Below, one piece after another: positions 9,793-33,333 of a DNA stretch of 64,000 nucleotides; within the stretch, counting starts at the first letter, position 1; each line of letters opens with the position of its first letter. The stretch comes from Candidatus Amesbacteria bacterium GW2011_GWC2_45_19 (GTDB lineage: Bacteria; Patescibacteriota; Microgenomatia; CAZETR01; Amesbacteraceae), in the NCBI GenBank assembly GCA_001001555.1, contig LCKS01000004.1, positions 36,130-100,129 of the forward strand, in the 5' to 3' direction. Position numbers and translations under genes: made by a program. The notes beneath the pieces were generated by a model. It saw nothing but the letters and a program-made list of their open reading frames with translations, did no database searches and was not told where the DNA came from.

Positions 9793-9860
9793 ATGGTAAT
9801 TTTAGCATTCATAGTGCTACTATTATGTACAGGTCTGATTTGAAGACCTACTTTGTGGTC

Positions 9861-9889
9861 TTGACAGGCAACCTAATTCCGGTTAGAAT
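9861..9889 (+). promoter_or_regulatory. sigma70-like promoter TTGACA-N17-TAGAAT driving phd/relE, near-leaderless (ATG about 7 nt after -10)
   Basis: ttgacaggcaacctaattccggttagaat directly upstream of ATG at 9896; preceded by hairpin aagacc-tactttgt-ggtctt. Confidence 0.45.
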
Positions 9890-9895
9890 TTCTAA

Positions 9896-10135
9896 ATGAC
9901 TAACCTATCTATTTCCCAACTCAAAATGAATCCGCGCCAGGCAATATTGGCGGCTCTTGACTATCCAGTAGCTATTAAAAGCCGGAATCAGGTTCAAGGT
10001 TATTTGGTCGGAAAGGATCTCTATGAAAAAATCATTACTTATATTGAAGATTTTATAGACCAAAGAGCTATCAAACATACGGACTTTTCCAAAGGTAGAG
10101 ATTTTGAAACCGTCGCCAAAAAACTGGGAATATGA
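9896..10135 (+). CDS. Phd/YefM-family antitoxin
   Basis: 79 aa; overlaps downstream RelE-like gene by 4 nt (ATGA); YefM-like length and charge pattern. Confidence 0.65.
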   Translation: MTNLSISQLKMNPRQAILAALDYPVAIKSRNQVQGYLVGKDLYEKIITYIEDFIDQRAIKHTDFSKGRDFETVAKKLGI

Positions 10136-10398
10136 GGGTCGTTCTTTCTCCCCGGGCGGAAAAGCAGTTAAAAAAATTACCTAAGATTGCCCAAATTGCG
10201 GCGGCTAATAAAATTAGATCAATAAGAGATAACGATATTACCGTCAATGAAGAGAAATTGGGCGGTTATAAGAATATCTATCGGGTCAGAATCGGAGACT
10301 ACCGGATTGTCTACCGCAAAATGGTTGGGGAACTATATATTGTCTTAATCCATCACCGTAAAGACGTTTATCTCCTACTCCATCGACTATTTAATTAG
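10132..10398 (+). CDS. RelE/ParE-family toxin (mRNA interferase)
   Basis: 88 aa, GDYRIVYRKMVGELYIVLIHHRKDVY typical of the RelE/StbE C-terminus. Confidence 0.75.
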   Translation: MRVVLSPRAEKQLKKLPKIAQIAAANKIRSIRDNDITVNEEKLGGYKNIYRVRIGDYRIVYRKMVGELYIVLIHHRKDVYLLLHRLFN

Positions 10399-10413
10399 TC
10401 TGATCGCTAGAGC

Positions 10414-10689
10414 TTGAGGGACATGCTAAAAATTCCTAAACAAATATATTTCGATCAGGAAACACTTACCCTCTATTCGGAATACGCTCAGATGGAACAT
10501 AAACCATTCGCCCTTGTCATCCGAGAAGTCTTAGCTGAAAAAGCCCCAGCGATCAAAAAACGTGTTGCCAAAACCGTAACAAAAAGTTCTTCCCTGCTTG
10601 ATCTTTATGGTTCTGTCAAAAGCCCGTACAAAAAACGTTTCTCTTCAGAGGAAGAACGGGCTTCCTTCGAAATGAGGATACGCTCATAA
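10414..10689 (+). CDS. hypothetical protein (possible orphan antitoxin-like)
   Basis: 91-aa ORF following relE; no recognisable motif. Confidence 0.35.
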   Translation: MRDMLKIPKQIYFDQETLTLYSEYAQMEHKPFALVIREVLAEKAPAIKKRVAKTVTKSSSLLDLYGSVKSPYKKRFSSEEERASFEMRIRS

Positions 10690-10856
10690 ATATACACTCG
10701 TGCTAGCCCCGGTACTTTTTTTGGAGTTAACGTGGCTACTCAATTCATTTTATAAACAGAAAAAGGACTCAGTCATTTTGATACTCAAGAAAATGCTTAG
10801 TTTCTCAAATTTTGAAGTCATTGAAAAAGAACTTGTCACAAACATGGTATCTCTAT

Positions 10857-10969
10857 AGCGAGCGGGAATGGGATCTGAGCCAGGAGGAGATGGCTTTTAA
10901 TTCAGGCTGGGAATTGTCCACATAAACCATAAAATCGGCGGCTTCTTTAAATATAAATCCCACCTGTAA
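10857..10969 (-). pseudogene. remnant of doc 3' end (diverged duplicate)
   Basis: Minus-strand translation ...FIFKEAADFMVYVDNSQPELKAISSWLRSHSRSL* aligns to Doc residues REKEIVKFMVSVANQNLSVDEISSWLKSN. It starts immediately after the vapC stop. Confidence 0.55.
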
Positions 10970-11359
10970 TTACGGTTCGAGGCGTTTTACCCAATTAAAT
11001 TTACTTAACCCCTTATCATACGAATATATCTCTCTAACATTGTCATCTTTAATAAGAAATATATTCAAACAGTCGGTCCAGTCCACAGTATGAGACTCGT
11101 AAAATTCTATTGCTTTTACAAGTATCATCTTGTTATCAATTTCAATATTAGAAGATATAACTGTTTTCAAACATTTCACGACAACACGTTTATCCAACTC
11201 ATATGCTGACCTTAATACCCACTCAATCTCAGAAAAAACAAAGCTGGAAGTCTGTAAATTTTTCGCTTCTTTTAATAAAGCTTTGCACCTGTCTGATTTG
11301 TTGCCAAACCTCACAAACACTTCAATAAAAATATTAGTATCTACGAATTTATTTACCAT
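10970..11359 (-). CDS. vapC: PIN-domain toxin VapC
   Basis: Starts at internal Met MVNKFVDTNIFIE (the ORF-track N-extension overlaps vapB); acidic PIN residues D..E..D; SYDKG motif. Confidence 0.75.
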   Translation of the reverse strand: MVNKFVDTNIFIEVFVRFGNKSDRCKALLKEAKNLQTSSFVFSEIEWVLRSAYELDKRVVVKCLKTVISSNIEIDNKMILVKAIEFYESHTVDWTDCLNIFLIKDDNVREIYSYDKGLSKFNWVKRLEP

Positions 11360-11615
11360 ATTTCTTGGCGAGTCTTTGGGCTTCTTTTTTCCTAGCGATT
11401 TCAATGATTTGTAATGTTGAATATTTTTTAGAAATAGGATGATTTGCCAAAAGACCCTGCAGACTATCCCAATCATCCTCTGCCTTTTCCAAAAAAATGG
11501 TATTATCTTTAACTTTCGTCCATAATTTACTTCCTTTATTCAGTCCCAATAGGGAGACAATAGATACCGGCAAAGTAAGCTGATTTTTTGAAGTTAACGT
11601 CAATAATGTATTCAT
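11349..11615 (-). CDS. vapB: AbrB/MazE/SpoVT-type antitoxin VapB
   Basis: 88 aa; swapped-hairpin-like N-terminus SKNQLTLPVSIVSLLGL; 11-nt overlap with vapC. Confidence 0.65.
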   Translation of the reverse strand: MNTLLTLTSKNQLTLPVSIVSLLGLNKGSKLWTKVKDNTIFLEKAEDDWDSLQGLLANHPISKKYSTLQIIEIARKKEAQRLAKKYGK

Positions 11616-11618
11616 CCC

Positions 11619-12059
11619 TTACTTTATAACATCTTCCTTACTCTTTGTCAACATCCTTACTTTTATCCTAGAGACCACCAGCATGTATCCGTTGGATTTG
11701 AGCCAGGAGGAGATTTCGTCAACGGAGAGATTTTGATTGGCTACAGAAACCATAAATTTCACTATCTCTTTCTCTCTAGCTGTGATTTTAACTCCGTTTA
11801 GGGATAGAAAGTTGTAAGTAGTAATAAAAGCGGTGCGTTTATTACCATCTATGAAGGGATGATTTTTAACGATAGACTGGATGAGGGCTCCGGCTTTGAG
11901 AAAAATGTCGGGGTATAAGTCCTGGCCATCGAAAGTGGCGAAAGGGCGGAAAATAGCTGACTGAAGCATACTGGTATCCCGAATACCAGAGGATCCGCCG
12001 TATTTTTGGATTGCCCGCTCGTGAACTGCCAAAACCTGTTTAAGAGTAAAACTTATCAC
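11619..12059 (-). CDS. doc: Doc (death-on-curing) Fic-family toxin
   Basis: Fic motif HPFIDGNKRTA; 146 aa. Confidence 0.8.
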   Translation of the reverse strand: MISFTLKQVLAVHERAIQKYGGSSGIRDTSMLQSAIFRPFATFDGQDLYPDIFLKAGALIQSIVKNHPFIDGNKRTAFITTYNFLSLNGVKITAREKEIVKFMVSVANQNLSVDEISSWLKSNGYMLVVSRIKVRMLTKSKEDVIK

Positions 12060-12307
12060 TGAAGTTGGGCTAGTTCTTTGAGAGCGTGACCATAGCGTTT
12101 TTCCACCTCTTTAATTAAATCAAACCACTCTTTATCCGGGGCGGTCGCATATTGGGTGGATCTGGGAATATGGGTAGAATAAGTGATAGATCCGTCTGTG
12201 TGGGCAACGGAAATTTTGGAATTTTTGGTGACTTTGTTTTTGGTGACAAAATCTCTTGGAAGAGTGACACCCAAAGAATTTCCAATTTGGACGACGGATT
12301 GGATCAT
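12056..12307 (-). CDS. AbrB/Phd-type antitoxin partner of Doc
   Basis: QIGNSLGVTLPRDFV swapped-hairpin motif; 4-nt overlap with doc. Confidence 0.65.
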   Translation of the reverse strand: MIQSVVQIGNSLGVTLPRDFVTKNKVTKNSKISVAHTDGSITYSTHIPRSTQYATAPDKEWFDLIKEVEKRYGHALKELAQLQ

Positions 12308-12315
12308 GGGCTTAT

Positions 12316-12343
12316 GTTATAACATGTTATAACGGTTTGTCAA
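12316..12343 (-). promoter_or_regulatory. promoter (-35 TTGACA, -10 TATAAC) overlapping two tandem copies of the palindrome GTTATAAC (putative antitoxin operator)
   Basis: Plus-strand atgttataacatgttataacggtttgtcaa immediately upstream of the antitoxin ATG at 12307; leaderless arrangement. Confidence 0.45.
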
Positions 12344-12363
12344 GAGGGCTTGAGGGGCGTGCC

Positions 12364-12576
12364 CTACTTCGCTTGTGGGCTACGTAAGGGTGAACCGCCG
12401 CGGTGGAAGAAGCGGCGCAGGTGGGTGGAAAGTTCCGGGGGAGATTTACCTTTGAATTGCTTGATAGCGATGCGGATGTCGCGCAGAAGAAGAACTGTTT
12501 CGATGGTTACAAAGACCAGGAGAATGGTCAGGGTGACGATGACTATAACGAGTAAGAATTGAGCCAAATTAGTCAT
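12364..12576 (-). CDS. small single-TM membrane protein (LapA/DUF1049-like?)
   Basis: 70 aa; TM LLVIVIVTLTILLVFVTI followed by a basic tail; abuts rodZ-like gene. Confidence 0.3.
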   Translation of the reverse strand: MTNLAQFLLVIVIVTLTILLVFVTIETVLLLRDIRIAIKQFKGKSPPELSTHLRRFFHRGGSPLRSPQAK

Positions 12577-13205
12577 TTTTTAACAACGGTACGCATCAGA
12601 CTGGCAGTCTTGCCGGACTTGGAAGTAGCCATAATAGAAATAATATTGTCTCCTGGTGTGAGAGGCAGGCGGAGAAAGAAACGGCCGCCTTTTTCCAGAG
12701 CCACCAGCTGGCCGTTAACTGAAACGGTGGCTTCCGGGCTAGTGATACCCACAACTTCAACGGTGGCCTCGGTGGTTTCTTGCCTATCAATTGGCATAAC
12801 TAGGCGCAGAGAAGGCGGGCCGGTGAGCACCCGGTATTGGAAAATGAGATAAGCCCCAAAGAGAGTAAAAATTAGGGCGATGGCGGCAATGATAGTGGTG
12901 CGCGGGGTCCAAAAACTGACTTCACTCACCGGTTTGACCATCCCCCGGGGGATAATTTGCCCTTGCTCGTTTTCCCCAAAATCCCGGCGGAAAATGGCCA
13001 GGATACTTTCCGGCTTTAACTCTAAAAATTCACTGTAATTTCTGATAAATCCCCGGGCTACCGCCCCCGAAGGCAATTGGGTGTAATCGTCGGCTTCGAC
13101 GGCATCTAAAAAGCGGGCCCGGATGCGGGTGATACGGGAAACATCCTTGAGATCCAGCTTTTGAGCGTTACGGGCTGTCTGCAGAATTTGGCCGACTGTT
13201 TTCAT
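12573..13205 (-). CDS. rodZ: RodZ-like HTH (Cro/C1-type) membrane protein
   Basis: N-terminal HTH ILQTARNAQKLDLKDVSRITRIRARFLDAVE, TM, C-terminal DUF4115-like domain. Confidence 0.6.
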   Translation of the reverse strand: MKTVGQILQTARNAQKLDLKDVSRITRIRARFLDAVEADDYTQLPSGAVARGFIRNYSEFLELKPESILAIFRRDFGENEQGQIIPRGMVKPVSEVSFWTPRTTIIAAIALIFTLFGAYLIFQYRVLTGPPSLRLVMPIDRQETTEATVEVVGITSPEATVSVNGQLVALEKGGRFFLRLPLTPGDNIISIMATSKSGKTASLMRTVVKK

Positions 13206-15288
13206 TTCCTAATTGATCCAGGCTTTTAATAAGAATATCCCGGGGTTTGGCTCCGGCGGCCGGGCCGATGATGCCGGCCTGCTGCAGCTCATCCAAAATC
13301 CGGGCGGCCCGGGCATAACCGATGCTTAACTTGCGCTGCAAAAACGAAGCGGAGGCGTTGTTAGCCGAAAGAATCAGGCGGACAGCGTCTTCAAATAATG
13401 GATCCCGGTCCTCGCCGTTGGGGGAAATGAAACTCCGGCCTTTTTGGCCCACAGACATAGAGGTGACTTCCTCGGTATAGTGGGGGGCCACTCCCTGTTT
13501 TTTCAAAAACTCGATCAACTGGTGAATTTCCCGGTCGGAAACAAAGGCGCCCTGAATACGGGTAGGTTTGGCCTGGTCCGGGGGAATGTAGAGCATATCT
13601 CCGCGTCCCAAAAGTTTTTCGGCGCCGGGCTGGTCGATGATGACTTTGGAATCGATCATGGAGGAAACGGCAAAGGCAATCCGGGTGGGAATATTGGCTT
13701 TGATCAGGCCGGTGATAATATCCACGGAGGGACGTTGGGTGGCCAAAACTAAGTGCAGGCCGGTGGCCCGGGCCATTTGGGCAATGCGGGTAATGGCATC
13801 CTCCACTTCCACCTGGGCATAGAGCATGATATCTGCCAATTCGTCGATAACAATAATGATATACGGCAAAGCCTGGAAACCGGACAATTCGTTGTAGGCG
13901 TCGATGTTTCTGGCGCCGACTTCGGCAAAAAGTTTGTAGCGGCGGTCCATTTCGCCGGTGGCCCATTTGAGGGCCGAAAGGACCTTGGCCGGTTCGACGA
14001 TAACCGGACAGAGCAAGTGAGGAATACCATTATAGTTAGTCAGTTCCACCCGTTTGGGGTCGACCATAATCAGATTAACCTCGCTGGGCGAGGTGCGGAA
14101 AAGCAGGGAGCCGATAAAAGCATTGATGCACACGGATTTGCCGGAACCGGTGGCGCCGGCGATTAAAACGTGGGGCATTTTGGCAATATCCGCTACAATA
14201 GGATTACCGGAGACGTCCAGGCCTAGAGCCACGGCCAGCTTGCTTTTGTGATGCTTCATGGGATCCGACTCCAGCATTTTGCGCAAAGACACAAATTCAG
14301 GAGAGCGGTTGGGAAGTTCTATGCCGACCAGGGACCGGCCGGGGATAGGAGCTTCAATACGGATTTGGCCGGTGGGAGCGGCCAGGGCCAAGGCTAAATC
14401 ATTAGACAGGGCGGAAATTTTGGAAAGCTTGGTGCCGATAGCTACCTCTAAAGCGTATTGGGTGACGGCCGGGCCATAATTAATTTCGGAAACTTTGGCG
14501 GTAATGCCAAAAGCGTCCAGGGTTTTTTCAATAGTACCGGCGTTGGTTTTGGTATCTCCCCGGTCGGCTTTGCCGGAGATATTTTCAGACAGCAGAGACA
14601 GGGGGGGGAAATGCCACGGCGTTTCGGAAGCGGAAGGCGGCAGGGGGGGGCGGAAATGCGACAGCTGCGCTGGAGAAGCTGGGGACGGCGGGGTAAATGG
14701 GGGAGGAGTTGCCATGCCGGAAAATTTAATGACTCTTTGAGTGGGGGCTTGGGAAACTTTTTTGAATTTGGATAAGAAATTTCTTACCCGAGAAAAAGTT
14801 TTGCCAAAAAAGGCTAAGACGTCCTCAAAAGGAATGTTGAACATAATAATCACACCAATAGATAAGCCAGCCAGTAAAAATAAGCCGGCACCCGGCGGTG
14901 ATAAAAATGAGCTGCTGCCCTGCCAGAGCTGATTACCCAATTGGCCGCCGCGGGATAGCCCGGCCAGAGCGGCCAAAACCACAAAGCTGCCAATAAAAAC
15001 ATGGGGCTCGGCCAGGCTGGATCTGATTTTGGTCAGCATCAGGCCACCCACAATAAAGGGAAAGGGCAGGAAGAAAGTGGTGAGGACGCCGAATTGAGTA
15101 GTGAGTAGTGAGTAGAGAGTGGAGAGGAGAGGTCCTTGTTTGGTAAAAGACAGCCAGATGAGGCCGGCGATAGCAAATAAGAGGATGGCGGTGATGGAGT
15201 AAATGACAGACTTTTTTAATTTGACTTTGAATGAAGTCTTGCGGCCAAAGAATGCGCGGGTTCTGGGCATGAACTTATTATACCTCAA
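13168..15288 (-). CDS. ftsK: DNA translocase FtsK/SpoIIIE
   Basis: N-terminal TMs, Pro-rich linker, Walker A GATGSGKSV, C-terminal gamma winged-helix domain. Confidence 0.85.
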   Translation of the reverse strand: MRYNKFMPRTRAFFGRKTSFKVKLKKSVIYSITAILLFAIAGLIWLSFTKQGPLLSTLYSLLTTQFGVLTTFFLPFPFIVGGLMLTKIRSSLAEPHVFIGSFVVLAALAGLSRGGQLGNQLWQGSSSFLSPPGAGLFLLAGLSIGVIIMFNIPFEDVLAFFGKTFSRVRNFLSKFKKVSQAPTQRVIKFSGMATPPPFTPPSPASPAQLSHFRPPLPPSASETPWHFPPLSLLSENISGKADRGDTKTNAGTIEKTLDAFGITAKVSEINYGPAVTQYALEVAIGTKLSKISALSNDLALALAAPTGQIRIEAPIPGRSLVGIELPNRSPEFVSLRKMLESDPMKHHKSKLAVALGLDVSGNPIVADIAKMPHVLIAGATGSGKSVCINAFIGSLLFRTSPSEVNLIMVDPKRVELTNYNGIPHLLCPVIVEPAKVLSALKWATGEMDRRYKLFAEVGARNIDAYNELSGFQALPYIIIVIDELADIMLYAQVEVEDAITRIAQMARATGLHLVLATQRPSVDIITGLIKANIPTRIAFAVSSMIDSKVIIDQPGAEKLLGRGDMLYIPPDQAKPTRIQGAFVSDREIHQLIEFLKKQGVAPHYTEEVTSMSVGQKGRSFISPNGEDRDPLFEDAVRLILSANNASASFLQRKLSIGYARAARILDELQQAGIIGPAAGAKPRDILIKSLDQLGNENSRPNSADSP

Positions 15289-23421: not shown

Positions 23422-24796
23422 GGATAGTGACGGCTATTATAATATCACCGGTCTTGAAGTCAACTGGCGGAGAAAAAACGGCCCCGAATTCCTGGCCGGT
23501 TTTAATTTTTTCAACTTCGGCTTTGCCAATTTTAAGAGATTTTATTTTGGTAATTTTGTCACCGATTTTGATCGAGTTGGTTTTGAGTATTTCTCCTTCG
23601 GTGCATTTACCCCCGGCCACCCGTAGATTGTCTATTTTGAACCCGGCCAGAATCTGGGCCCGGCCGGTAATGGTTTCGGTCTCTTGAGGATGGACTAATT
23701 TTTCTATGGCATCTAAAAGCTCATAAATAACATTAAAAGAGTGGATTTTAACTTTGTCTATTTCGGCTAGTTTGGCGGTGGAGCCGGGAATTTTGACATT
23801 AAAAGCAATTATTTGAGAATTTGTGGAAGTGGCAAAAAGAATGTCAGATTCGGTAACTTCGCCAGTAGCTGACGAAATTAGATTGACTTCCGGGGGTAAC
23901 AAAGAAGTAATGGCCTCAAGAGAACCGAGAGTGTCGGCTTTGAGGATAATTTTGACTATATCACCCTCTCCCTTCGGCCTGCCTGCCGGCAAGGCAGGGT
24001 TTCCCCCTCTTAAATTAAGAGGGGGAACGAAAGGGGGTGATATTTTAGTGATAGCAGAACTTAGTACAGACCCTACAGGGACGACGGAAGTGAGGCCGAG
24101 AATTTCGACGGGGGTAGAAGGCAGAGCAGGATTGACAGACAGGGCCTTGGCTTTACCGACCAATTTGTCTGAAAATAGCTCCTGGCCAACTTTTAAAGTA
24201 CCGTTTTTGACGATGCACATAGCCAAAGGGCCGCGGCGGGTATCCAAGTGAGATTCAAGAACAATACACTCTAGAGAGCCGGAAGGGTCGGAGACTGGAG
24301 GTTGGAGGCTAGAAACTAGATGGACCATCTCCAAAAGTTCAGGCAAGCCCTGGCCGGTTTTGGCAGAAACGGGAATGGCAGGTACGTCACCTCCAAACCC
24401 TTCGACTAAAACTGCGTTTTCAACCAATTGGGATTTGACGGTGTCTGCGGAGGCCCCGGGAAGGTCCATTTTATTAATAGCCACAATCATGGGAATACCG
24501 GCTGATTTAATGGTGGCTATAGATTCTTTGGTCTGGGGCATGACCCCGTCTACGGCGGAAATTACCAAAATAGCAATGTCGGCAATATCAGCTCCCCGGC
24601 TGCGCATTTGAGAAAAAGCAGCGTGTCCCGGCGTGTCGATGAAAGTGATACCGTTCGTCTGGAAAGCGTGAGTGCTTTGGGTTATACCCCCGACTTCACG
24701 AGAGGCGATGTTGGTTTTACACAGAGCATCAAGAAGAAAAGTTTTGCCATGATCTACATGGCCCAAAATGACAACGATAGGTGGTCTGGTTTGCAT
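23408..24796 (-). CDS. infB: translation initiation factor IF-2 (short form starting at the G domain)
   Basis: [28 protein letters not shown] GTPase motifs; 462 aa. Confidence 0.85.
   Translation of the reverse strand: MQTRPPIVVILGHVDHGKTFLLDALCKTNIASREVGGITQSTHAFQTNGITFIDTPGHAAFSQMRSRGADIADIAILVISAVDGVMPQTKESIATIKSAGIPMIVAINKMDLPGASADTVKSQLVENAVLVEGFGGDVPAIPVSAKTGQGLPELLEMVHLVSSLQPPVSDPSGSLECIVLESHLDTRRGPLAMCIVKNGTLKVGQELFSDKLVGKAKALSVNPALPSTPVEILGLTSVVPVGSVLSSAITKISPPFVPPLNLRGGNPALPAGRPKGEGDIVKIILKADTLGSLEAITSLLPPEVNLISSATGEVTESDILFATSTNSQIIAFNVKIPGSTAKLAEIDKVKIHSFNVIYELLDAIEKLVHPQETETITGRAQILAGFKIDNLRVAGGKCTEGEILKTNSIKIGDKITKIKSLKIGKAEVEKIKTGQEFGAVFSPPVDFKTGDIIIAVTIHGAS
23939..24022. mobile_element. 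RPE-like nested palindromic element (TIR TATCACCC/GGGTGATA; inner hairpin CCCCCTCTTAA-tt-TAAGAGGGGG plus CCTGCC-GGCAA-GGCAGG) inserted in-frame within infB
   Basis: About 84 bp (28 codons). Translated within IF2 as ...VPPLNLRGGNPALPAGRPKGEGDIV. A homologous element lies in grpE. Confidence 0.55.
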
Positions 24797-24797
24797 C

Positions 24798-25769
24798 TCA
24801 TTTTTCGCTCTTGATATCGATGTGATAGCCGGTGAGCTTGCCGGCTAGTTTGGCGTTTTGACCCTCGCGGCCGATAGCCAGAGACAGTTGATCGGCGGGG
24901 GCAGTAACAACGGCCTCAGCTTTTTTGGCATTGGCTTTGACGATCAGGCCGGTGGCGGGAGACAGGGCGGAGGCGATAAATTTCTCCGTCTCTTCACTAA
25001 ACTGAACTATATCTATTTTTTCTCCGTTGAGCTCACCGATAACAGCCTGAACCCGGACGCCTTTTTGGCCTACACAGGAGCCGACCGGATCTACCCCAGA
25101 TTGGTGGGAGTAGACGGCAATTTTGGTCCGGGATCCGGGGTCGCGGGCAATGACTTTAATCTCGACAGCACCGGAGTTGACCTCGGGAACTTCTCTTTTG
25201 AACAATTCCTTGATCAGACCGGTGTTGGCCCGGGAAACGATCACTTCGCGGCCACGTAAGGAGTCGCGGATACTGTCCAGATAAAAAGTCAGGCGTTGGT
25301 TGATGTGATAGTCCTCGGAATAGACCTGTTCGGCGGGAGGCATGACGGCCTCGGCCTTGCCGATATCCACAATGATTTCGTTGCCGATGAAGCGCAGAAT
25401 CATGCCGTTGACCAGTGTGCCTAAGCGTTTTTCATATTCGGTGACGGTGGCGGATTTTTCGGCCTCGCGGATTTTCTGCATGATAACTTGCTTGGCAGTT
25501 TGGGCGGCGATGCGGCCAAACCCCGGAGGAGTGATATCCAATCTTTTTTTACCCTTGAGAACAAATACCCGGTGGTCGCCTGTTTGAGAATCGAGGTCCG
25601 AATCGTATGTTTTAGTCTCGTCGTATTGGTCGGGATGGTCTTTTTTAAAGGCGGCGACAATGGCTTGCTTAATAGTGTCCAGGACGACTTGAGGATCCAG
25701 ATTGCGCTCATGCGCCACCTGATTTAAGGCGGAGGCAAATTCGGTTCTGGCTTGCAAAACTTTGGCCAT
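24798..25769 (-). CDS. nusA: transcription termination/antitermination factor NusA (short, no AR repeats)
   Basis: N-terminal domain, S1, KH1/KH2; 323 aa. Confidence 0.85.
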   Translation of the reverse strand: MAKVLQARTEFASALNQVAHERNLDPQVVLDTIKQAIVAAFKKDHPDQYDETKTYDSDLDSQTGDHRVFVLKGKKRLDITPPGFGRIAAQTAKQVIMQKIREAEKSATVTEYEKRLGTLVNGMILRFIGNEIIVDIGKAEAVMPPAEQVYSEDYHINQRLTFYLDSIRDSLRGREVIVSRANTGLIKELFKREVPEVNSGAVEIKVIARDPGSRTKIAVYSHQSGVDPVGSCVGQKGVRVQAVIGELNGEKIDIVQFSEETEKFIASALSPATGLIVKANAKKAEAVVTAPADQLSLAIGREGQNAKLAGKLTGYHIDIKSEK

Positions 25770-25801
25770 ACAGTGGCCAATTTTATCAGAAGCTGAGGCG
25801 T

Positions 25802-25841
25802 TATACCACCCCCACCCTCCCCCTCCTAATCTAGGAGGGGG
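25802..25841. repeat. left inverted repeat TATACCACCCCCACCCTCCCCCTCCTAATCTAGGAGGGGG (contains hairpin CCCCCTCCTAA-tc-TAGGAGGGGG)
   Basis: Inverted partner at 27011..27048; the hairpin overlaps the DUF559 stop (..LTPS*). Confidence 0.6.
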
Positions 25842-26190
25842 TAAGTTCCTTTCTAATCTGGTCCACTACTTTGTCTAAATTGGACTGAACTTCCCAATTC
25901 CAAAATCTAATAACTTTGATGTTAAAAGCCCCTAGATATCTGGTTCTATACGAATCATATTTATAATTTTGCTTGTGTTGCTCGCCATCGAGTTCTATGG
26001 CAAGTTTTTTCTCCGGACAGTAAAAGTCCAAAATATAAAATGTTACACTGTGCTGTCGGCGAAACTTAAAGCCGAGGCGGCTATTTTTCAACTTGCTCCA
26101 AAGCAACCTTTCTTCTCTAGTGCCATAGTTTCTTGACCTCCTTCGTTTTTGTTTGAGTTTAGGAGTATTAAAAATAAATTCTTTTCTCAT
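25831..26190 (-). CDS. DUF559 (Vsr/restriction-endonuclease-like fold) domain protein
   Basis: YILDFYCPEKKLAIELDGEQH core motif; AT-rich. Confidence 0.7.
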   Translation of the reverse strand: MRKEFIFNTPKLKQKRRRSRNYGTREERLLWSKLKNSRLGFKFRRQHSVTFYILDFYCPEKKLAIELDGEQHKQNYKYDSYRTRYLGAFNIKVIRFWNWEVQSNLDKVVDQIRKELTPS

Positions 26191-26260
26191 AAAACTGTAG
26201 TTTTATTTCCTTAATCTTACCAGTGCGCGCCTTTTGTGTTCAGGGTGTTAATATGATCGC

Positions 26261-27022
26261 ATGGTCAGTCGTTTGTATTCCGCTATATATTTATTGGAAA
26301 AATTATCTAATTTGGGGGCCATGAAGGTTAATATGCAGTATTTAACGAAAGGTGGCCCGGAATTAAATCACTTTATCGATCGTCAGGCACACCCTGCTAG
26401 AAATGAATATCTTGATATATGCAACCTTAAAAGATTTGTTGAGAGTGGCGAATATGTGATCTCAAATAAATATGTATGTATTTCGACTACATTTGAAACT
26501 TCCGATGTCAAATATAAGGCTTTTATTGGTCTTGATGTGGAGATCGGCGATGAGAAAGTAGTGTTTAATGTTGCCAAGTTTCTCGCACATAAATTAGGTA
26601 AATCGATTGATGTATTTAAAACAACGCGCGGTTTCCACTTTTTTATTCCTGATTTGGTATTTTCTGGTGATTTTGAGTACTTAACGAAAATATTTGAAAT
26701 TGCGAACGATGCTTCTTTGCGGATTGGAGACAAGTGGGTCGCAGGATATTTTGACTGTGTAAAAAAAGCAAAAACTTATAAAGATTTACAACAAATTTCG
26801 CGAGAAATATTAAACAATTTCGGACACTATCAAGCCAGAGGAAAATACACCTTCTTTGACTTAAGACATATCGCTCATGGCATGTTCGAATATGAACGTC
26901 AGCGGGGTATTTCTGATCAGAATAATGGTGTTAGAACACAATTGTTTTTTAGAATAACATCCAAGAACCACAACGATCATCCTCCGGTGTTTATAAAACA
27001 GTTTATTTATTCCCCCTCCTAA
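26261..27022 (+). CDS. hypothetical protein, possible archaeo-eukaryotic primase-polymerase (PrimPol/AEP) domain
   Basis: IGLDVEIGDE (motif I DxE), then about 28 aa later TTRGFHFFIP (motif II sxGxH), then an acidic motif III candidate; AT-rich; start may be an internal Met. Confidence 0.35.
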   Translation: MVSRLYSAIYLLEKLSNLGAMKVNMQYLTKGGPELNHFIDRQAHPARNEYLDICNLKRFVESGEYVISNKYVCISTTFETSDVKYKAFIGLDVEIGDEKVVFNVAKFLAHKLGKSIDVFKTTRGFHFFIPDLVFSGDFEYLTKIFEIANDASLRIGDKWVAGYFDCVKKAKTYKDLQQISREILNNFGHYQARGKYTFFDLRHIAHGMFEYERQRGISDQNNGVRTQLFFRITSKNHNDHPPVFIKQFIYSPS

Positions 27023-27048
27023 GTTAGGAGGGGGACGAGGGGGTGGTA
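27011..27048. repeat. right inverted repeat (hairpin CCCCCTCCTAA-gtt-AGGAGGGGG, spacer ACGA, then GGGGGTGGTA)
   Basis: Its reverse complement TACCACCCCCTCGTCCCCCTCCTAACTTAGGAGGGGG matches the left repeat at 25802; the hairpin supplies the ...SPS* stop of the 253-aa ORF. Confidence 0.6.
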
Positions 27049-27115
27049 CTAGAGAATGTCTGCTAATTCTTCCAGTAAACGTCTTTGTTCGTGGGAAAGA
27101 TGGGCGGGGAGATCG
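27049..27115 (-). pseudogene. remnant of dnaJ 3' end (diverged duplicate)
   Basis: Minus-strand translation VEHFYIDLPAHLSHEQRRLLEELADIL* versus DnaJ C-terminus DFYIRLIIDFPTHLSHRQKQILEEFERS*. Confidence 0.55.
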
Positions 27116-27221
27116 ATGTAGAAATGTTCCACCTAAGAGATGGAACTGCCTAACTATATTAAGCTAGGCGGTCTAATTGTTTATTGACATCTGGTCTTAC
27201 CCTTGTTAACATTAGTTTACA

Positions 27222-27827
27222 ATGGAACAGGGTGATGCGGGTGTTGCTGTTCCCGAAAAGGAAGCGGCCGATGAGACGTTAAGGCCTGTTGTTGACAGGT
27301 TGCTCCTTGACACGCATTTTCGGGAAGTTCCCCTCCCAGATAACTTTGATGGTTGGACTGGCGAAGATCTAAGGAAGCGCCCCAATGAATCTCTGAAGAG
27401 AATGCTTACCCAGGAGGCGGTTGGGGAAGTTCAACAGGCTTTGGGACTAAGTTTTGAATCTAAGTTTAGTGGTCACACTGGTCGCCCATTACCGAAGGCG
27501 GAGACAAAACAAGCTGTTCCTGATTATGAAAGTTGGTCTGCAAGACTAGAGGCTTTAAGAGGAGAAATGGGCGAGAAAGTAAATGAGGCGGAAGCACGAG
27601 GCGTGAGTGTTCCAAGATTTGACGCTGAAACGGGACAGCCCCTGCCCAAAAACTCATTAAGAGTTTATGAGGCCGTGCATGGCAGACGTCAGCCTCAAGA
27701 GGCACCTCCGTCTATGTCTGATCAAGAGGCTCTTGAAATGGGTCTTAGTGCCTTGAGGGAAATGAAGGCCATAAGGCGTGAAGACGAAGCTGCTAGGAAA
27801 TCCGGAGGACTACTGCCCAGATCGTGA
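27222..27827 (+). CDS. hypothetical acidic protein
   Basis: 201 aa, no recognisable motif; higher GC than the neighbouring cassette. Confidence 0.4.
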   Translation: MEQGDAGVAVPEKEAADETLRPVVDRLLLDTHFREVPLPDNFDGWTGEDLRKRPNESLKRMLTQEAVGEVQQALGLSFESKFSGHTGRPLPKAETKQAVPDYESWSARLEALRGEMGEKVNEAEARGVSVPRFDAETGQPLPKNSLRVYEAVHGRRQPQEAPPSMSDQEALEMGLSALREMKAIRREDEAARKSGGLLPRS

Positions 27828-27849
27828 GACGGTAATTTGGGTTACCAAC

Positions 27850-29262
27850 ATGTCAGAAACTACAACCTCAGAGGTTATGGTGCCAAAACAAGCTGCTGAA
27901 CTGGGATTAGAGTTGGTTTACACGGACGAAAGTTCGCACCCCCCATTTAACGTATTACCCAAAGCGTCTATCGGAATACAGAAAAACGGCGAGAAAGCAG
28001 AATTAATAAAAGTTAGCCCGGAACACGGGCGGGCGACGGCAGATGCCAGGCTATTGTCAACAGTCGTGTGGCGTGACGATTTTGGTATACCTTTTGGGTC
28101 GGTGGATTATAAGGGGAACGTCGTGGATGATGTGGTTATTGATACGGATCAAACCGATAAATTAAGGGTGTGTGGAATTAAAACAGGAAAGGTCACCAGA
28201 AGAATTATTGCGGCCTCTCGGGCCTTGAGAGGAATGGGGTTACCAACTGAGGCCATTTACAGGATGTATAAAATTACCTGGTTTCCCGAAAACGGTCGGC
28301 GGATAAGTCCAGAAGAATGGAGAAAACAACTACTAACAGAGCTTGAATCAGATATCGAATTTGCCAGAGAACAGCTGAGGAATCCCTCAACTTACGGCCA
28401 GAAAAAGGATGAACTAGAGGAGCTTTTGGCAAAAGCTGAAGAAGAGGTCAAATTTGTAAAAGGTTATTTGAAGCAGAATGACAATTTCTATGTTTTTGAA
28501 AGGCATCTACAAACACCGATTAGATTACGAGATATCCCGCACGCCAAGACCAAAAATGACTTTGAAAATCTGGCTAAGCAGAGCATGGAGTGGCTTGACA
28601 AAATTCTAACCAGGAGACAACGAGCGAAAACTCCGGTCTGGAATAAGTTGTTACGTAAATCTAAAGACTTATGTTTTGCGCTTTGGCCCTTTTCAGGAGA
28701 CGAAAAATTTGATTTTAATAACTCGGATCATTTATCTCGAGTGTTTGTTGAGTGGCTACCTGCTCAAATGGGACAATACTTAGCGAGGCTACATAAAAAT
28801 GGCTTGATTCATGGTTTTCCCCACTCACAAAACTGGTCCTTGGGAAGTCTTTACGACTTAGACAGTGTGTATGGCCCTGCGTTGGGAGATAACCCGAGAA
28901 CCGAAGATAATTTTGTAAAGGATGTAGAGATTGCGGCAAGAGCCGTCATGGATATCTTTGCTGTACGGGCCCCAGGTTTTGACTGTGTGGGATTGACGGC
29001 AAGTCACTATCTGGCTCAGACGATTCTTGGGCAAAACAAAGATGAACTGCCTTTGGTAAAAGCTGTAGCTAACTTTGAATACGGCTACTTGGAGGCAAGA
29101 TTTAGGAAAAAGCTGACTCCTGCGAATGTTGATGGGTATGTCAGGAGGTATATGCCCCAAGTAAAGGTCGGCGGAGACGTTGTGAGAAGTTGGGCTGCCG
29201 TAAATGAGAGAATTATTAATTTGATTAAGTCTAAACTTTTGGTCTTGCGGGAGACGGGGTGA
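27850..29262 (+). CDS. hypothetical large protein (weak kinase-like HG..H..N / DLD signature, central coiled coil)
   Basis: Probable start at MSETTT after the upstream stop (the track start 27778 overlaps the previous gene); LARLHKNGLIHGFPHSQNWSLGSLYDLDSVYG. Confidence 0.45.
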   Translation: MSETTTSEVMVPKQAAELGLELVYTDESSHPPFNVLPKASIGIQKNGEKAELIKVSPEHGRATADARLLSTVVWRDDFGIPFGSVDYKGNVVDDVVIDTDQTDKLRVCGIKTGKVTRRIIAASRALRGMGLPTEAIYRMYKITWFPENGRRISPEEWRKQLLTELESDIEFAREQLRNPSTYGQKKDELEELLAKAEEEVKFVKGYLKQNDNFYVFERHLQTPIRLRDIPHAKTKNDFENLAKQSMEWLDKILTRRQRAKTPVWNKLLRKSKDLCFALWPFSGDEKFDFNNSDHLSRVFVEWLPAQMGQYLARLHKNGLIHGFPHSQNWSLGSLYDLDSVYGPALGDNPRTEDNFVKDVEIAARAVMDIFAVRAPGFDCVGLTASHYLAQTILGQNKDELPLVKAVANFEYGYLEARFRKKLTPANVDGYVRRYMPQVKVGGDVVRSWAAVNERIINLIKSKLLVLRETG

Positions 29263-29265
29263 TAT

Positions 29266-30096
29266 TTAAGATCTTTCAAACTCTTCCAGTATTTGTTTTT
29301 GGCGGTGGGAGAGGTGGGTGGGGAAATCGATGATGAGACGGATATAGAAATCGCCGCGGTTGGCTACTCCACGGCCGGCCAGGCGAACCATGGTACCGGG
29401 TTGGGTGCCGGGGCGGATTTTAAGCTTTAAGTCCGCGTCTAAGGTAGGGACACTTGTGGTCCCTCCGAGAATAGCCAGGGTGAAAGGAATTTTGTGGTCT
29501 ATATAGATGTCTGCCCCATCGCGGCGGAAAATTAGATCCGGCTCAACTTCAAAAGTAATATCAAAATCGGTAAAACGCAGATGAGTACCGGTATCAGCGC
29601 CGGCGGGAATTTTAATAGCGTGGGTCCGGCCGTCAATGGTGACGCTTTCGGTACCGCCTGAAACTGCCGTTTTAAAAGGAATGCGCAAAGAATAATGAGG
29701 CTTGGCAGGCCGGCTGCGGCCAAAGGGCGAAGCGCCGCCAAAAAATTGTTCAAATATTTCAAAAGGATCGCCCATGTCCCCGAAAGGATTTTGTCCGCCT
29801 CCAGAAGTTGAATAGTAATATTGGAAAGGGCCTTGCTGTTGCCCGGCAAAGCCGGATCCGCCGGAAAAACCACCGGGCGGAGTGTGGCCGAATTGGTCAT
29901 AAGTTTGCTTCTTTTGAGAGTCGGAAAGAACTTGATAAGCCTCGTTTATTTCTTTGAACTTCTCTTCGGCTTCGGGAGACTTATTTTTGTCCGGGTGCCA
30001 CTGCATGGCCATTTTGCGGTAGGCAGATTTGATCTGGGCATCGGAAGCGCCTTTAGAAACACCTAAAATATCATAATAATCACGCTTAGCGGCCAT
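29266..30096 (-). CDS. dnaJ: DnaJ-like co-chaperone (J domain + G/F region + C-terminal domain, no zinc finger)
   Basis: DYYDILGV...HPDKN J domain with HPD; 276 aa. Confidence 0.8.
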   Translation of the reverse strand: MAAKRDYYDILGVSKGASDAQIKSAYRKMAMQWHPDKNKSPEAEEKFKEINEAYQVLSDSQKKQTYDQFGHTPPGGFSGGSGFAGQQQGPFQYYYSTSGGGQNPFGDMGDPFEIFEQFFGGASPFGRSRPAKPHYSLRIPFKTAVSGGTESVTIDGRTHAIKIPAGADTGTHLRFTDFDITFEVEPDLIFRRDGADIYIDHKIPFTLAILGGTTSVPTLDADLKLKIRPGTQPGTMVRLAGRGVANRGDFYIRLIIDFPTHLSHRQKQILEEFERS

Positions 30097-30211
30097 AGTT
30101 CAGCTTGACATTCTATGCTATTATAAATGTTGACAAGTAATTCCCCATGCGTGGGCTGCCGGAATGGTTGCTCGAATATAGCGTGTGGGGTTTTGTCATT
30201 TTTACGGAACT

Positions 30212-30847
30212 TCAAGCAAACAGAGAGCTTTCTCCGATAATCAGGGACTTAATAATATCATAGTAACTGCTGTCTCCATATTCGTACTTTCTAAAAATTG
30301 ACCAGCTAATAAAATCGGTCGCTTGTAAAGACTTCTCTTCGTGGGGAGTTTTTATTATTACCTGTAGTTTGTGTTTATGATTCACCTTGATCTTATCAGC
30401 CAGGTACGATTTGAAATTTTCGTTCAAAAAACGATTTGTTTCCTTTCTGGAAGCTATCAGTGTTAAATTGTCCAGAGGAACTAACTTATTTTCATAAATT
30501 CTATTCAATAGGATATTAGTTACATAGTTGTACAAGACACTCTTCTCTTCTTGAAGTTTGGTATAAACTTTCTTCTTGTTTAGATATATAACCATAATTT
30601 GGCAGTCTCTGCCTGCCAATTCCCGAAGTAATCGGAATCTGGTTGTGGGCGACTCTTTATGACAATGAAGCACTCCGCTTTTCTTTTTGTGAATTTTTTT
30701 AAGTCCCGTATGAATTTTTGATACTAATTTTTCAATTAGGCGTTTTTCCTTGCAAAATAGAAATGTGACCAAAAACCATTGAGTGGTTCTCTTTTTGCTA
30801 AAGTCAAAACCTAAGTCTCCACTCTCATCCATGAATATATACGCCAT
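30212..30847 (-). CDS. DUF3800 family protein
   Basis: N-terminal MAYIFMDESGDLGF (DESG motif); strongly AT-rich; the track start 30886 probably extends too far. Confidence 0.5.
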   Translation of the reverse strand: MAYIFMDESGDLGFDFSKKRTTQWFLVTFLFCKEKRLIEKLVSKIHTGLKKIHKKKSGVLHCHKESPTTRFRLLRELAGRDCQIMVIYLNKKKVYTKLQEEKSVLYNYVTNILLNRIYENKLVPLDNLTLIASRKETNRFLNENFKSYLADKIKVNHKHKLQVIIKTPHEEKSLQATDFISWSIFRKYEYGDSSYYDIIKSLIIGESSLFA

Positions 30848-31188
30848 CTTACTGGCAATTGTACCCCGCGAGTGCCAAATTGACAAATTTTAAACATTGA
30901 GTAAGATACGAATATATGAGTTCTCAAATCGAATATGTGCTAACACGAGAAAGAGGCACTTGGGTTGATTGGTTTGTTCGGATAACATCGGTGGGGTTTT
31001 TGGGTTGGGAGAAAAATCTGGTTTCTAATACATGGGGAATGACATCTGGACCCGATGTTTCTGCGCCCAGAAAATCAGGGAGTTTCTATTGGTGGTTTTT
31101 TGGTCTGGGATGAAAGTAGAGATTGTGGAAAAGACCGAAGGTTGATACAATTGAAGAAAGCTAATTGGCTTTATTTTTTTGACCTCTT

Positions 31189-33333
31189 ATGGCTGATGTA
31201 AAGACTACTAACAGGATGGTGCCGTTGGATCGGGTGCGCAACATTGGCATAATTGCCCATATCGACGCCGGAAAGACGACGACAACCGAAAGAATTTTGT
31301 TTTACACCGGGAAAAGTTACAAGATTGGAGATATTGACGAAGGAGACACACAAATGGACTGGATGGAGCAGGAAAGAGAACGAGGAATCACCATTGTTTC
31401 GGCTGCAACTACAACCTTTTGGACAGTAAACGACGCAAATTCTCCAGTGGAGGCGGGGTCGTATCGGATAAATATCATCGACACGCCCGGACACATTGAT
31501 TTTACGGCAGAAGTAGAACGGAGCTTACGGGTATTGGATGGGGCAGTAACTGTTTTGGACGCGGAAGAAACGGTACAGTCGCAGACAGAAACGGTGTGGC
31601 GGCAGGCGGACAAATATAAAGTCCCGCGGATAATTTTTGTGAATAAAGTGGATAAACTGGGAGCCAATTTCGAAGGGACAGTCAAAGCAGTCATCGACAG
31701 GCTAGGGGCCAACCCGGCGGTCATGGCCTATCCCATTGGAGTTGAAAATACTTTCCGGGGGGTAGTTCTACTTTTGGAGCGCAAGGCTTTAATTTGGCAG
31801 GGTGACGAAACCGGGGCCAAATTTGTAGAGGAAGAAGTGCCGGCAGAGATGAAAGAAGTGGTAGAGAAATGGCGCAGCCAGTTAATTGAGCAGATTTCAG
31901 AAACAGACGATGACTTGCTAAATAAATTCCTGGCCGGAGAAGAGCCGAGCATTACGGAGCTAAAAACTGCCCTAAGAAAAGCCACTATTGCCTATAAATT
32001 GGTACCCATATACTCGGGGGCATCACTTCGCAATAAAGGGGTGCAGCCGCTTCTGGACGCAGTGGTGGAGTATCTGCCCTCCCCGGTTGACATTGACCAG
32101 GCAAAGGGAGTCAACCCCAAAACTGGGGGTGAAGAGGTCAGAAAAACTATTAATGAAGAAAAATTCTGCGGGCTGGCGTTTAAGATCCAGACCGACCCGC
32201 ATGTGGGACGGCTGACTTATCTGCGGATTTATTCAGGAAAACTCACGGCCGGGCAGGGAGTGTATAACGCCACCAAAGACAAGGAAGAGCGGATTTCCCG
32301 AATGCTTCTGATGCACGCTAACAAGCGGGAAGAGATAGACGCGGCCTACACGGGAGAGATTGTGGCTCTGGTGGGGCTGCGGGAGACGAGTACAGGACAT
32401 ACTCTATGCGACAAAAGCGCACCAATTGTACTCGAGTCTATTACGTTTTCGGAACCGGTTATTTCTTTAGCTATCGAGCCAAAAACTAAACAGGATCAGG
32501 AAAAGATGGGGTTGGCTCTGAATAAATTATCGGACGAGGATCCAACTTTCCGGATCAAGTCTAACCTGGAAACAGGACAGACGATTATTTCCGGAATGGG
32601 AGAATTGCATTTGGAAATTATCGTGGACCGGATGAAACGGGAGTTTGGAGTGGAAGCGACCACGGGAGCTCCCCAGGTGGCATACAAAGAAACTGTCAGA
32701 AAAGCCGCTGAGGCGGAAGGAAAATATATCCGCCAGTCCGGTGGCCGGGGACAATATGGCCATTGCTGGTTGAGACTTGAACCGTTACCCCGAGGCGCAG
32801 GGTTTGAATTTGAGGACGAGATTAAGGGTGGGGCAATTCCAGCAGAATTCATCCCGGCTATTGAAAAAGGGGTCAAGGAAGCTATGGAAAATGGAGTATT
32901 GGCGGGTTTTCCGGGAGTAGATATGAAAGTCGCCTTATTCGACGGAACTTATCACGATGTGGATTCTTCGGAAATGGCGTTTAAAATTGCCGGTTCAATG
33001 GCGTTTCAACATGGGGTGAAATTGGCCGATCCGTGCCTTTTAGAGCCGATCATGAAGGTGGAAGTGTCCACCCCCGAAGACTATATGGGGGATGTAATTG
33101 GTGACTTGTCCAGCAAGCGGGCGCAGATTTTGGGAACTGACAAGCGGGGGCACTTAACCATTATTAACGCTTTTGTGCCCTTGGCCGAACTATCAGGTTA
33201 TGCTACCAAACTGCGGTCCATGTCCCAAGGCCGGGCCACCTATTATATGGAGCCATCCCACTATGAAGAAGTGCCCAAAAACATCGCCGAGAACATCATT
33301 GCTAAATCTGGTAAAGTGACAGCAAATGCTTAA
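31189..33333 (+). CDS. fusA: elongation factor G
   Basis: [27 protein letters not shown]; 714 aa. Confidence 0.9.

Follow-up and report, generated by a model that had tools for sequence, protein, structure and literature searches.

For many integrative and conjugative elements (ICEs) and prophages, the integration site is the 3′ end of a gene, and the att sequence is duplicated. Other described routes of entry are homology-facilitated illegitimate recombination (HFIR), as defined in PMC3240628, and cassette exchange at hot spots flanked by core genes, as in the displacement of type VI secretion system (T6SS) effector modules of Vibrio cholerae (PMC5361080). The present analysis concerns a locus of the groundwater bacterium Candidatus Amesbacteria bacterium GW2011_GWC2_45_19 within a stretch of 64,000 nucleotides (nt) of contig LCKS01000004.1 (positions 36,130 to 100,129), called the window below. 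Here, the 3′ end of the chaperone gene dnaJ is present twice, and the two copies enclose a pair of genes, orf201 and orf470, on the opposite strand.

SelO/YdiU proteins are “pseudokinases” able to AMPylate and UMPylate, and they can control stress responses and chaperones. SelO of Pseudomonas syringae uses K113, R176, R183, N253, and D262, and the Asp of the HRD motif is missing (PMC8097203). These five residues keep ATP flipped, with K113, R176, and R183 on the gamma-phosphate, so that AMP is transferred (PMC8097203). YdiU UMPylates DnaK, GroEL, HtpG, and ClpB (bioRxiv 10.1101/692707). The explanation favored here for the Amesbacteria locus is, as a whole, considered probable on balance: the dnaJ–nusA spacer is an insertion hot spot, the orf201–orf470 cassette arrived anchored by homology to dnaJ, orf470 is of the SelO/YdiU type, and its position beside dnaJ is non-functional.

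The second dnaJ tail and the insertion hot spot

The functional DnaJ protein ends ...DFYIRLIIDFPTHLSHRQKQILEEFERS*, and its gene closes at 29266, as had been claimed in the original prediction, a note made from the sequence alone. The same note reported a diverged copy of this tail on the same strand, and the copy was recovered in three ways, all against the window (blastn, tblastn, and a local alignment of our own). With the last 100 nt of dnaJ as query, blastn matched 27065–27118 with 77.8% identity over 54 nt (E = 2e-7), and the runner-up match stood at E = 0.055. The C-terminal 40 amino acids (aa) of DnaJ found the second tail by tblastn at E = 5e-5, and the local alignment scored 48 there versus 30 at the next best place. 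The pair is the longest direct repeat in the repeat listing of the window. With gaps allowed, the repeat extends over ~85 nt (29332–29249 versus 27118–27032) and includes the stop codon and ~17 nt past it. The longest exact run between the functional end (copy A) and the second tail (copy B) is 7 nt, and the copies have no exact core in common.

A repeat this short and this diverged (78% over 54 nt) might be a chance similarity or an assembly artefact, but the probability left for either is practically negligible. Both E-values within the window are low, and copy B is on the same strand, in frame, and with its stop at the homologous position. Moreover, the gene order is identical in 12 contigs from ENA, Logan, and NCBI assemblies, which represent different samples and assemblers. 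The arrangement is therefore no assembly artefact, and these contigs, together with the E-values, refute both ideas. Copies A and B, both on one strand, flank orf201 and orf470. On the plus strand, the 17 nt that follow the functional dnaJ stop (ATATCACCCCGTCTCCC) close the reading frame of orf470 with its last codons and stop, which puts the cassette junction within a few bases of 29249.

Relatives were studied in a set of 80 Microgenomates loci recovered with DnaJ as the query. The conserved order is (fusA)–dnaJ–nusA–infB, and dnaJ–nusA–infB synteny is found in most of the 80 loci. In the two closest relatives with enough flanking sequence, L001 (DnaJ 84% identical) and L011 (Amesbacteria GWA1_47_20), fusA directly abuts dnaJ, and only 16 nt and 98 nt, respectively, separate dnaJ from nusA, an adjacency that the earlier note had proposed to check. 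Because fusA, dnaJ, and nusA are directly adjacent in L001 and L011, the orf201–orf470 cassette is a strain-specific accessory insertion. Relatives of orf201, orf470, and orf253 (a further gene of the spacer, searched by tblastn) are encoded in none of the 80 loci. The contrary picture, in which both cassette genes are core genes always found beside dnaJ, was not seen.

Compared with L001 and L011, the window carries at least three insertions around dnaJ: a DUF3800 gene, orf201–orf470, and orf253 with a DUF559 gene. The GC content of orf201–orf470 is genome-like, whereas that of DUF3800 and of orf253 with DUF559 is low. The DUF3800 insertion is a separate one: it lies between fusA and dnaJ, which have no gene between them in L001 and L011. 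Among 58 relatives in which it was measured, the dnaJ–nusA spacer spans 16 nt to 7 kb; in L016, L018, and L047, it contains a DUF559 gene. The spacer is an insertion hot spot in this Amesbacteria genome. The position of the cassette next to dnaJ reflects this hot spot and is treated as a coincidence, with no functional tie to the chaperone. A functional link between a YdiU-like orf470 and dnaJ was considered and dropped because the adjacency is unique to this population.

In the favored explanation, the 2.1-kb cassette, consisting of orf201–orf470 and its own promoter-like site, would have arrived on DNA bearing a dnaJ 3′ end. The incoming DNA would have recombined with the resident dnaJ through homology, either by a single Campbell-type crossover of a circular fragment or by homologous pairing at one end and an illegitimate join at the other. 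Such an event would leave dnaJ intact and a functionless second tail, copy B, on the far side of the cassette. Copy A matches the dnaJ end of L011 at 88% over 83 nt and copy B at 81% over 54 nt, so copy A is closer to the L011 ortholog; both identities fall inside the range found along the whole of dnaJ. The frame and stop of copy B are intact over 22 codons with conservative substitutions, a length too short to decide its origin. Copy B also resembles the DnaJ tails of other Amesbacteria, such as those of L012 (...LLEELEDTL*), L013 (...LLEELQRSL*), and L014.

Three points count against arrival by homology. A donor genome in which the cassette sits beside dnaJ was not found, and for this reason we only infer the mechanism of arrival. 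Sliding-window identity gave no recombination breakpoint inside the window dnaJ, only noise. Finally, the 85-nt repeat may have arisen by duplication in situ followed by decay.

A scan of all relatives for a second dnaJ tail revealed an independent case in L009 (VMGA01000011.1, Microgenomates bacterium Gr01-1014_16; 8001–13330). The L009 relic of 239 nt (13043–13293) comprises the last 83 codons, in frame, with 82% nt identity and codon differences that are mostly silent. It lies directly upstream of nusA, and a low-GC island of 4.2 kb stands between it and the intact dnaJ. The open reading frames (ORFs) of the island encode a truncated class-I aminoacyl-tRNA synthetase-like protein, a hydrolase, a protein without an assigned family, and a methyltransferase; no integrase or recombinase is among them. 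L047 has a third, short relic at ~9357–9386 (AAAATCCTGGAAGAATTTGAGGAGACTTAA, or KILEEFEET*), just past the distal inverted repeat of its DUF559 element.

These parallels also bear on a different origin, in which a site-specific integrative element inserted at the dnaJ 3′ end, so that the two tails are attL and attR and the element brings a replacement gene end. Such an element would account for direct repeats of a gene 3′ end around the insert, for the empty site in relatives, and for the recurrence of the pattern at dnaJ in L009 and L047. It is nevertheless very unlikely. Pfam, NCBIfam, PADLOC, and PHROG scans detected no recombinase domain in orf201, orf470, or orf253, and an integrase or recombinase domain is found neither in the window cassette nor in the L009 island. 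The repeats are 78% identical without an exact core, and their lengths are far apart between the cases (85, 239, and ~30 nt). Island contents differ as well, and the recombination junctions appear at different positions in each case. With differing repeat lengths and cargoes, no recombinase, and relics that may represent alternative functional alleles, recombination through dnaJ homology therefore fits better than site-specific integration. Integration targeted to a tRNA was dropped as a candidate; the window has no tRNA gene.

As a probable recombination scar, the dnaJ duplication is nothing unusual in kind, yet it recurs in relatives. The relics of the window, L009, and L047 are a simple sequence marker that could help to follow accessory cassettes as they move between genomes of the candidate phyla radiation (CPR) without obvious integrases. 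As a separate observation, the window DnaJ (at ~29360–29370) is without 9 residues of the compared relatives (GRGV-ANRGDFYI versus GKGAPQLHALSRANRGDFYI). This deletion is located ~35 nt upstream of the start of copy A and could be a by-product of the recombination event.

The orf470 family and its predicted fold

Of the two subjects, the unannotated orf470 family is the more interesting content. The orf470 protein matches no family in Pfam, NCBIfam, PADLOC, or PHROGs, apart from a weak Bud32 fragment match (E = 0.03). A word-index homology search returned the query itself alone, and a profile query returned three proteins only. A sequence-profile search of the PDB gave spurious PBP5 matches and no SelO. 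An exhaustive HMMER search of a library standing for ~15 billion proteins yielded 358 representatives at the cut-off of E <= 1e-3 (202 at E <= 1e-10), of which the best non-self match is 36% identical. The original claim that neither cassette protein has an obvious family thus holds for curated libraries but not for orf470 at large, which belongs to this unannotated family. Forty members have no Pfam domain except for one marginal Alp7A_like_C match (E = 0.008), and the extensions of ten long members (660–1250 aa) have none. No relatives occur in collections of phages, plasmids, and viral contigs.

A confident AlphaFold2 model of orf470 was built from 40 homologs (predicted local distance difference test, pLDDT, 85.9; predicted template-modeling score, pTM, 0.87) and compared with the PDB by Foldseek. 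The top nine matches are all YdiU/SelO (6iii, 6lna, 9jym, 6k20, and 6eac), with E-values of 1.4e-5 to 7e-4 and a probability of 1.0. The next matches, ROP2, Bud32, and GSK3, have E-values of at least 0.019. The central coiled coil that the earlier note had seen in orf470 appears in the model as paired long helices at 154–209, a ~55-residue insertion relative to SelO. A second insertion, at 235–300, is partly low-confidence in the model.

Residue conservation was counted over 150 family representatives with mutual identity below 50%. K88 is kept in 145, R218 in 143, R225 in 149, N328 in 147, and D336 in all 150. The position of the HRD Asp (323) is Phe in orf470 and F/Y in 128/150; SelO is likewise without this Asp and has a hydrophobic residue there. 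The kinase-like signature IHGFPHSQN...DLDS with a replaced catalytic Asp, to which the earlier note had drawn attention, is present, with Phe in place of the Asp, and fits the SelO/YdiU pseudokinase fold. A second conserved Asp, D338, forms a DxD motif with D336.

The motifs of orf470 can be paired with those of Escherichia coli SelO along the chain. HGR (59–61) corresponds to DGR, K88-G to K107-G, RIxxAS..GLPTE to RExLAS..GIPTT, HGFPHSQN to HGVMNTDN, and D336 to D256, while R218...R225 corresponds to R170...R177 with the same 7-residue spacing. In an hhalign comparison with nine diverse SelO sequences, HGFPHSQNWSL-GSLYDL falls on SelO HGVMNTDNMSLLGLTLDY and RIIAASRALRGMGLPT on REyLaSeAMhaLGIPT, in collinear order, and the register places HGFPHSQN..D on HGVMNTDN..D. 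The protein would keep the residues that position the flipped ATP in SelO, namely the Lys, both Arg, the Asn, and the metal-binding Asp. Because the SelO-like motif set is conserved and the HRD Asp is missing as in SelO, orf470 is a predicted nucleotide-monophosphate (NMP) transferase. Judged from the model and the motifs, it most likely transfers AMP or UMP to a protein.

Several results speak against this assignment. The Foldseek TM-scores between orf470 and SelO/YdiU are only 0.33–0.40. The SelO model PF02696 has no match in orf470 or in any of 40 members, and the hhalign comparison of the family with the nine SelO sequences is not significant (E = 0.011, probability 4%). The equivalence of K88 and of R218/R225 with SelO comes from manual mapping of motifs in blocks that hhalign left unaligned. 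The alpha-C Glu of SelO (E136 in P. syringae, E130 in E. coli) aligns with Ile119, a position that is I/V/L in 109/150 family members; the near-invariant E134 (143/150) might substitute for it. SelO C476 is invariant in the nine-sequence alignment, and orf470, which ends ...LVLRETG, has no such Cys. Overall, orf470 resembles SelO in fold and motifs, and membership in the SelO family at the sequence level is not established.

Some of these results would also suit a catalytically dead scaffold or a conventional phosphotransferase of another kinase-like family, namely the missing significant SelO sequence match, TM-scores of ~0.4, the weak Bud32 match (E = 0.03), and an alpha-C Glu that is not kept at the aligned position; the DxD of D336 and D338 recalls aminoglycoside/choline-kinase-like enzymes. 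However, the near-invariance of K88, R218, R225, N328, and D336 argues for catalysis. In 128/150 members, F/Y stands in place of the canonical catalytic base, and the Foldseek E-values of SelO/YdiU are about a thousandfold lower than those of all other kinases. A scaffold or another phosphotransferase is thus considered unlikely. On a separate note, a selO-like frame in L103 (301–1737; Riemerella anatipestifer plasmid NZ_CP081930.1) contains one internal stop codon and may be a pseudogene or include a recoded codon.

orf201 and the gene pair

Like orf470, orf201 has no family in Pfam, NCBIfam, PADLOC, or PHROGs, and the word-index search gave itself alone. Its sole homolog (L081, 1789–3156; 34% identity over 144 aa, E = 5e-22) is a 455-aa protein of a metagenome contig, whose N-terminal 170 residues are matched by orf201. 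The motifs FDG(W/Y)TGEDLR and VP(R/K)FDA(E/D)TG are common to both. The L081 gene adjoins that of P0003, the closest relative of orf470 (36% identity), so that a homologous pair recurs, though divergent in L081 and co-directional in the window.

The two opposite-strand ORFs described in the original prediction exist, and orf201 is acidic. The overlap of their reading frames is doubtful: it appears only with the maximal ORF for orf470 (27778–29262, from GTG 27778). The ATG at 27850, 22 nt past the orf201 stop, is favored, being backed by a database protein, the gene calls of 12 independent contigs, and the N-termini of homologs, and the frames probably do not overlap. The two genes do form an accessory insertion, but the proposal of a two-component module is weak: an orf201-like partner is found in only two of seven distinct family contexts, the window and L081.

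The five contexts without an orf201-like gene (L082, the L084 group, L089, L097, and L098) count against a general partnership, and they are the reason for which the orf201–orf470 pairing is described as specific to a subclade. No orf201–orf470 fusion is found among the 150 representatives. The single-sequence AlphaFold2 model of orf201, helical and partly disordered, is of too low quality (pLDDT 56) for fold comparison. A role of orf201 as substrate or regulator of orf470 is speculative.

The earlier note had also raised the question of a toxin/effector or defense pair. In such a toxin–antitoxin or anti-phage system, orf470 would be the toxin (compare HipA and Fic/Doc) and orf201 the antitoxin. 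The distribution of the pair is accessory and patchy, and the hot spot also holds the DUF559 and DUF3800 genes. In addition, the L081 pair lies beside an AbiEii toxin with a DUF6922 protein, the L082 homolog neighbors a Fic protein, and the region around the long homolog P0066 is phage-like, with genes for a primase and a small terminase subunit, all three hints only. On the other hand, PADLOC finds nothing for orf201, orf470, orf253, or DUF3800, and PHROGs nothing significant for orf201 or orf470. Most homologs are partnerless and stand among housekeeping genes, the phage, plasmid, and viral-contig collections hold no relatives, and the orientation of the pair differs between L081 (divergent) and the window (co-directional). 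With no positive evidence, a toxin or defense role is unsupported, and this alternative is rated as decidedly unlikely.

Two neighborhoods of family members are recorded for their own sake. In L098/L099 (6001–9237), the 1078-aa P0066 is next to a 1084-aa ClpB-like AAA+ protein, a terminase small subunit, and a DnaG/Toprim primase. In L082 (6001–8393), a Woesebacteria-like contig, the orf470 homolog is flanked by a Lon-like AAA+ gene on one side and a Fic/DOC gene on the other, which brings two different AMPylase-type folds side by side.

The family comprises hundreds of sequence clusters with a SelO-like predicted fold and motifs and no Pfam or NCBIfam model. A tentative proposal, for which the odds are held to be less than even, is that it forms a previously undescribed SelO-like branch of NMP transferases, found so far mainly on CPR/Microgenomates-type contigs. 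The branch would be set apart by variations of its active site, with paired helices inserted, a DxD as metal site, and the alpha-C Glu missing where SelO has it, and the acidic orf201 would be a dedicated partner, as substrate or regulator, in this subclade. If so, orf201–orf470 would be a mobile module for post-translational modification in ultra-small bacteria. If active, the family would bring SelO-type chemistry to CPR bacteria, about whose regulatory repertoire little is known, and would provide natural active-site variants for studies of flipped-ATP catalysis.

Layout of the locus and likeness to known systems

The features of the region are listed in Table 1. The window also matches Candidatus Amesbacteria bacterium GW2011_GWA2_47_70. 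The domains of DnaJ are recognized by Pfam (DnaJ, 6.7e-30; DnaJ_C, 4.5e-25). The promoter-like site ends ~10 nt upstream of the orf201 start. orf253 has no family in Pfam, NCBIfam, PADLOC, or PHROGs, and an Rfam scan of 24500–31500 gave no match.

Table 1. Positions of genes, repeats, and other elements from fusA to nusA in the window
Feature	Position	Strand	Remarks
fusA	31189-33333	+	
DUF3800 gene	30212-30886	-	GC 0.34-0.38; between fusA and dnaJ; phrog_9243 match 1.6e-12
dnaJ	29266-30096	-	276 aa; J domain and C-terminal domain, without zinc finger; intact
Repeat copy A: functional dnaJ 3′ end, last 22 codons, stop, and 17 nt 3′ (ATATCACCCCGTCTCCC)	29249-29332	-	
orf470	27850-29262	+	Unannotated family; protein-kinase-like fold nearest SelO/YdiU; predicted NMP transferase
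orf201	27222-27827	+	Isoelectric point (pI) 5.2, mildly acidic; predicted helical, partly disordered; putative partner protein
Sigma-70-like promoter match, TTGACA-17-TAACAT with extended TG	27184-27212	+	10/12 consensus positions; consensus match only
Hairpin GTTCCATCTCTTAGGTGGAAC	27126-27146	-	21 nt; junction of cassette and repeat copy B
Repeat copy B: dnaJ 3′ end relic (IDLPAHLSHEQRRLLEELADIL*, stop 27049-27051) and start of palindromic element	27032-27118	-	
Palindromic element, distal copy	27011-27048		TACCACCCCC...CCCCCTCCTAACTTAGGAGGGGG on minus strand
orf253	26261-27022	+	GC 0.36; part of second insertion, relic B to nusA
DUF559 gene (Vsr-like endonuclease fold)	25831-26190	-	Low GC; Pfam DUF559 1.9e-32
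Palindromic element, nusA-proximal copy	25804-25841		Flank collinear with L011 spacer upstream of nusA
nusA	24798-25769	-	Ancestral downstream neighbor of dnaJ; infB beyond

The two copies of the palindromic element form an inverted pair around the low-GC DUF559 segment, together with orf253; the repeat listing of the window pairs the two positions both as an inverted and as a direct repeat. The element has ~38 nt, with an outer end of ATATCACCCC or TACCACCCCC followed by the palindrome CCCC(C)TC(T/C)TAAnnT(A/T)AG(A/G)GGGG. The same inverted pair surrounds DUF559 in three other Amesbacteria, L016 (~1135–1170 and ~1540–1585), L018, and L047, and it has the appearance of terminal inverted repeats belonging to a small mobile element. 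In the window, ATATCACCCC occurs 3 times versus 0.22 expected by chance. Solo copies of the palindromic element are also found in frame inside coding sequence, at 23995–24043 (infB) and at 49880–49940 (ORF 49444–49962), and recall Rickettsia palindromic elements. The infB copy adds about TKISPPFVPPLNLRGG relative to InfB of L001, L011, and L016; in ORF 49444–49962, the copy comes after the start codon.

The earlier note had read ‘VEHFY’ at the front of copy B as part of the diverged tail. This reading is doubtful; the stretch is more probably the 21-nt hairpin plus a T-rich tail. The hairpin agrees at 20/21 positions with L011 8739–8759, where it spans the dnaJ stop codon. The 21-nt hairpin (GTTCCAYCTCTTAGGTGGAAC) is also present in L015 (15051–15071) and twice in L018 (7045–7065 and 8279–8299), with unrelated flanks and located at gene 3′ ends or shortly past them. 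The L018 hairpins are located near the pnp stop and at the stop of a major facilitator superfamily (MFS) transporter gene. The last codons (...STS) and the stop codon of both L011 dnaJ and the L018 MFS transporter gene are given by the hairpin, which may be a mobile terminator-like element.

Among the known systems, SelO/YdiU (PF02696; 6eac, 6k20, 6lna, and 6iii) is the closest to orf470. Both have the HGxxxxxN loop with a metal-binding Asp 8–9 residues on and, past helix C, the G(L/I)PT motif, and their sizes are similar (470 aa in orf470 and 478 aa in SelO). By the manual mapping, an N-lobe Lys-Gly and, beyond the hinge strand, a pair of Arg residues spaced by 7 would also correspond. Unlike SelO, orf470 has two helical insertions, Ile at the alpha-C Glu, D338, and no C-terminal Cys/Sec, and SelO D246 is replaced by Gln, Gly, or His in the orf470 family. 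The family is known from CPR/Microgenomates-type contigs, and in this subclade a partner gene lies alongside. The coronavirus NiRAN domain, a SelO-like NMP transferase, also employs a kinase-like fold for NMP transfer. However, the coronavirus ORF1ab matches of orf470 in the Foldseek viral library are weak (E = 0.04–0.15) and not significant, and the biological context is unrelated.

The insertion itself resembles the integration of ICEs and prophages at gene 3′ ends in that a direct repeat of the target gene’s 3′ end flanks the insert and the target gene is left intact. It differs in the lack of an integrase and of an identical core and in its variable repeat length. With HFIR and T6SS cassette exchange, it has in common a homology anchor in a conserved flanking gene, remnants of the earlier arrangement beside the new cassette, and no need of a dedicated recombinase. 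The remnant in V. cholerae is an orphan immunity gene, whereas the remnant here is a duplicated gene tail.

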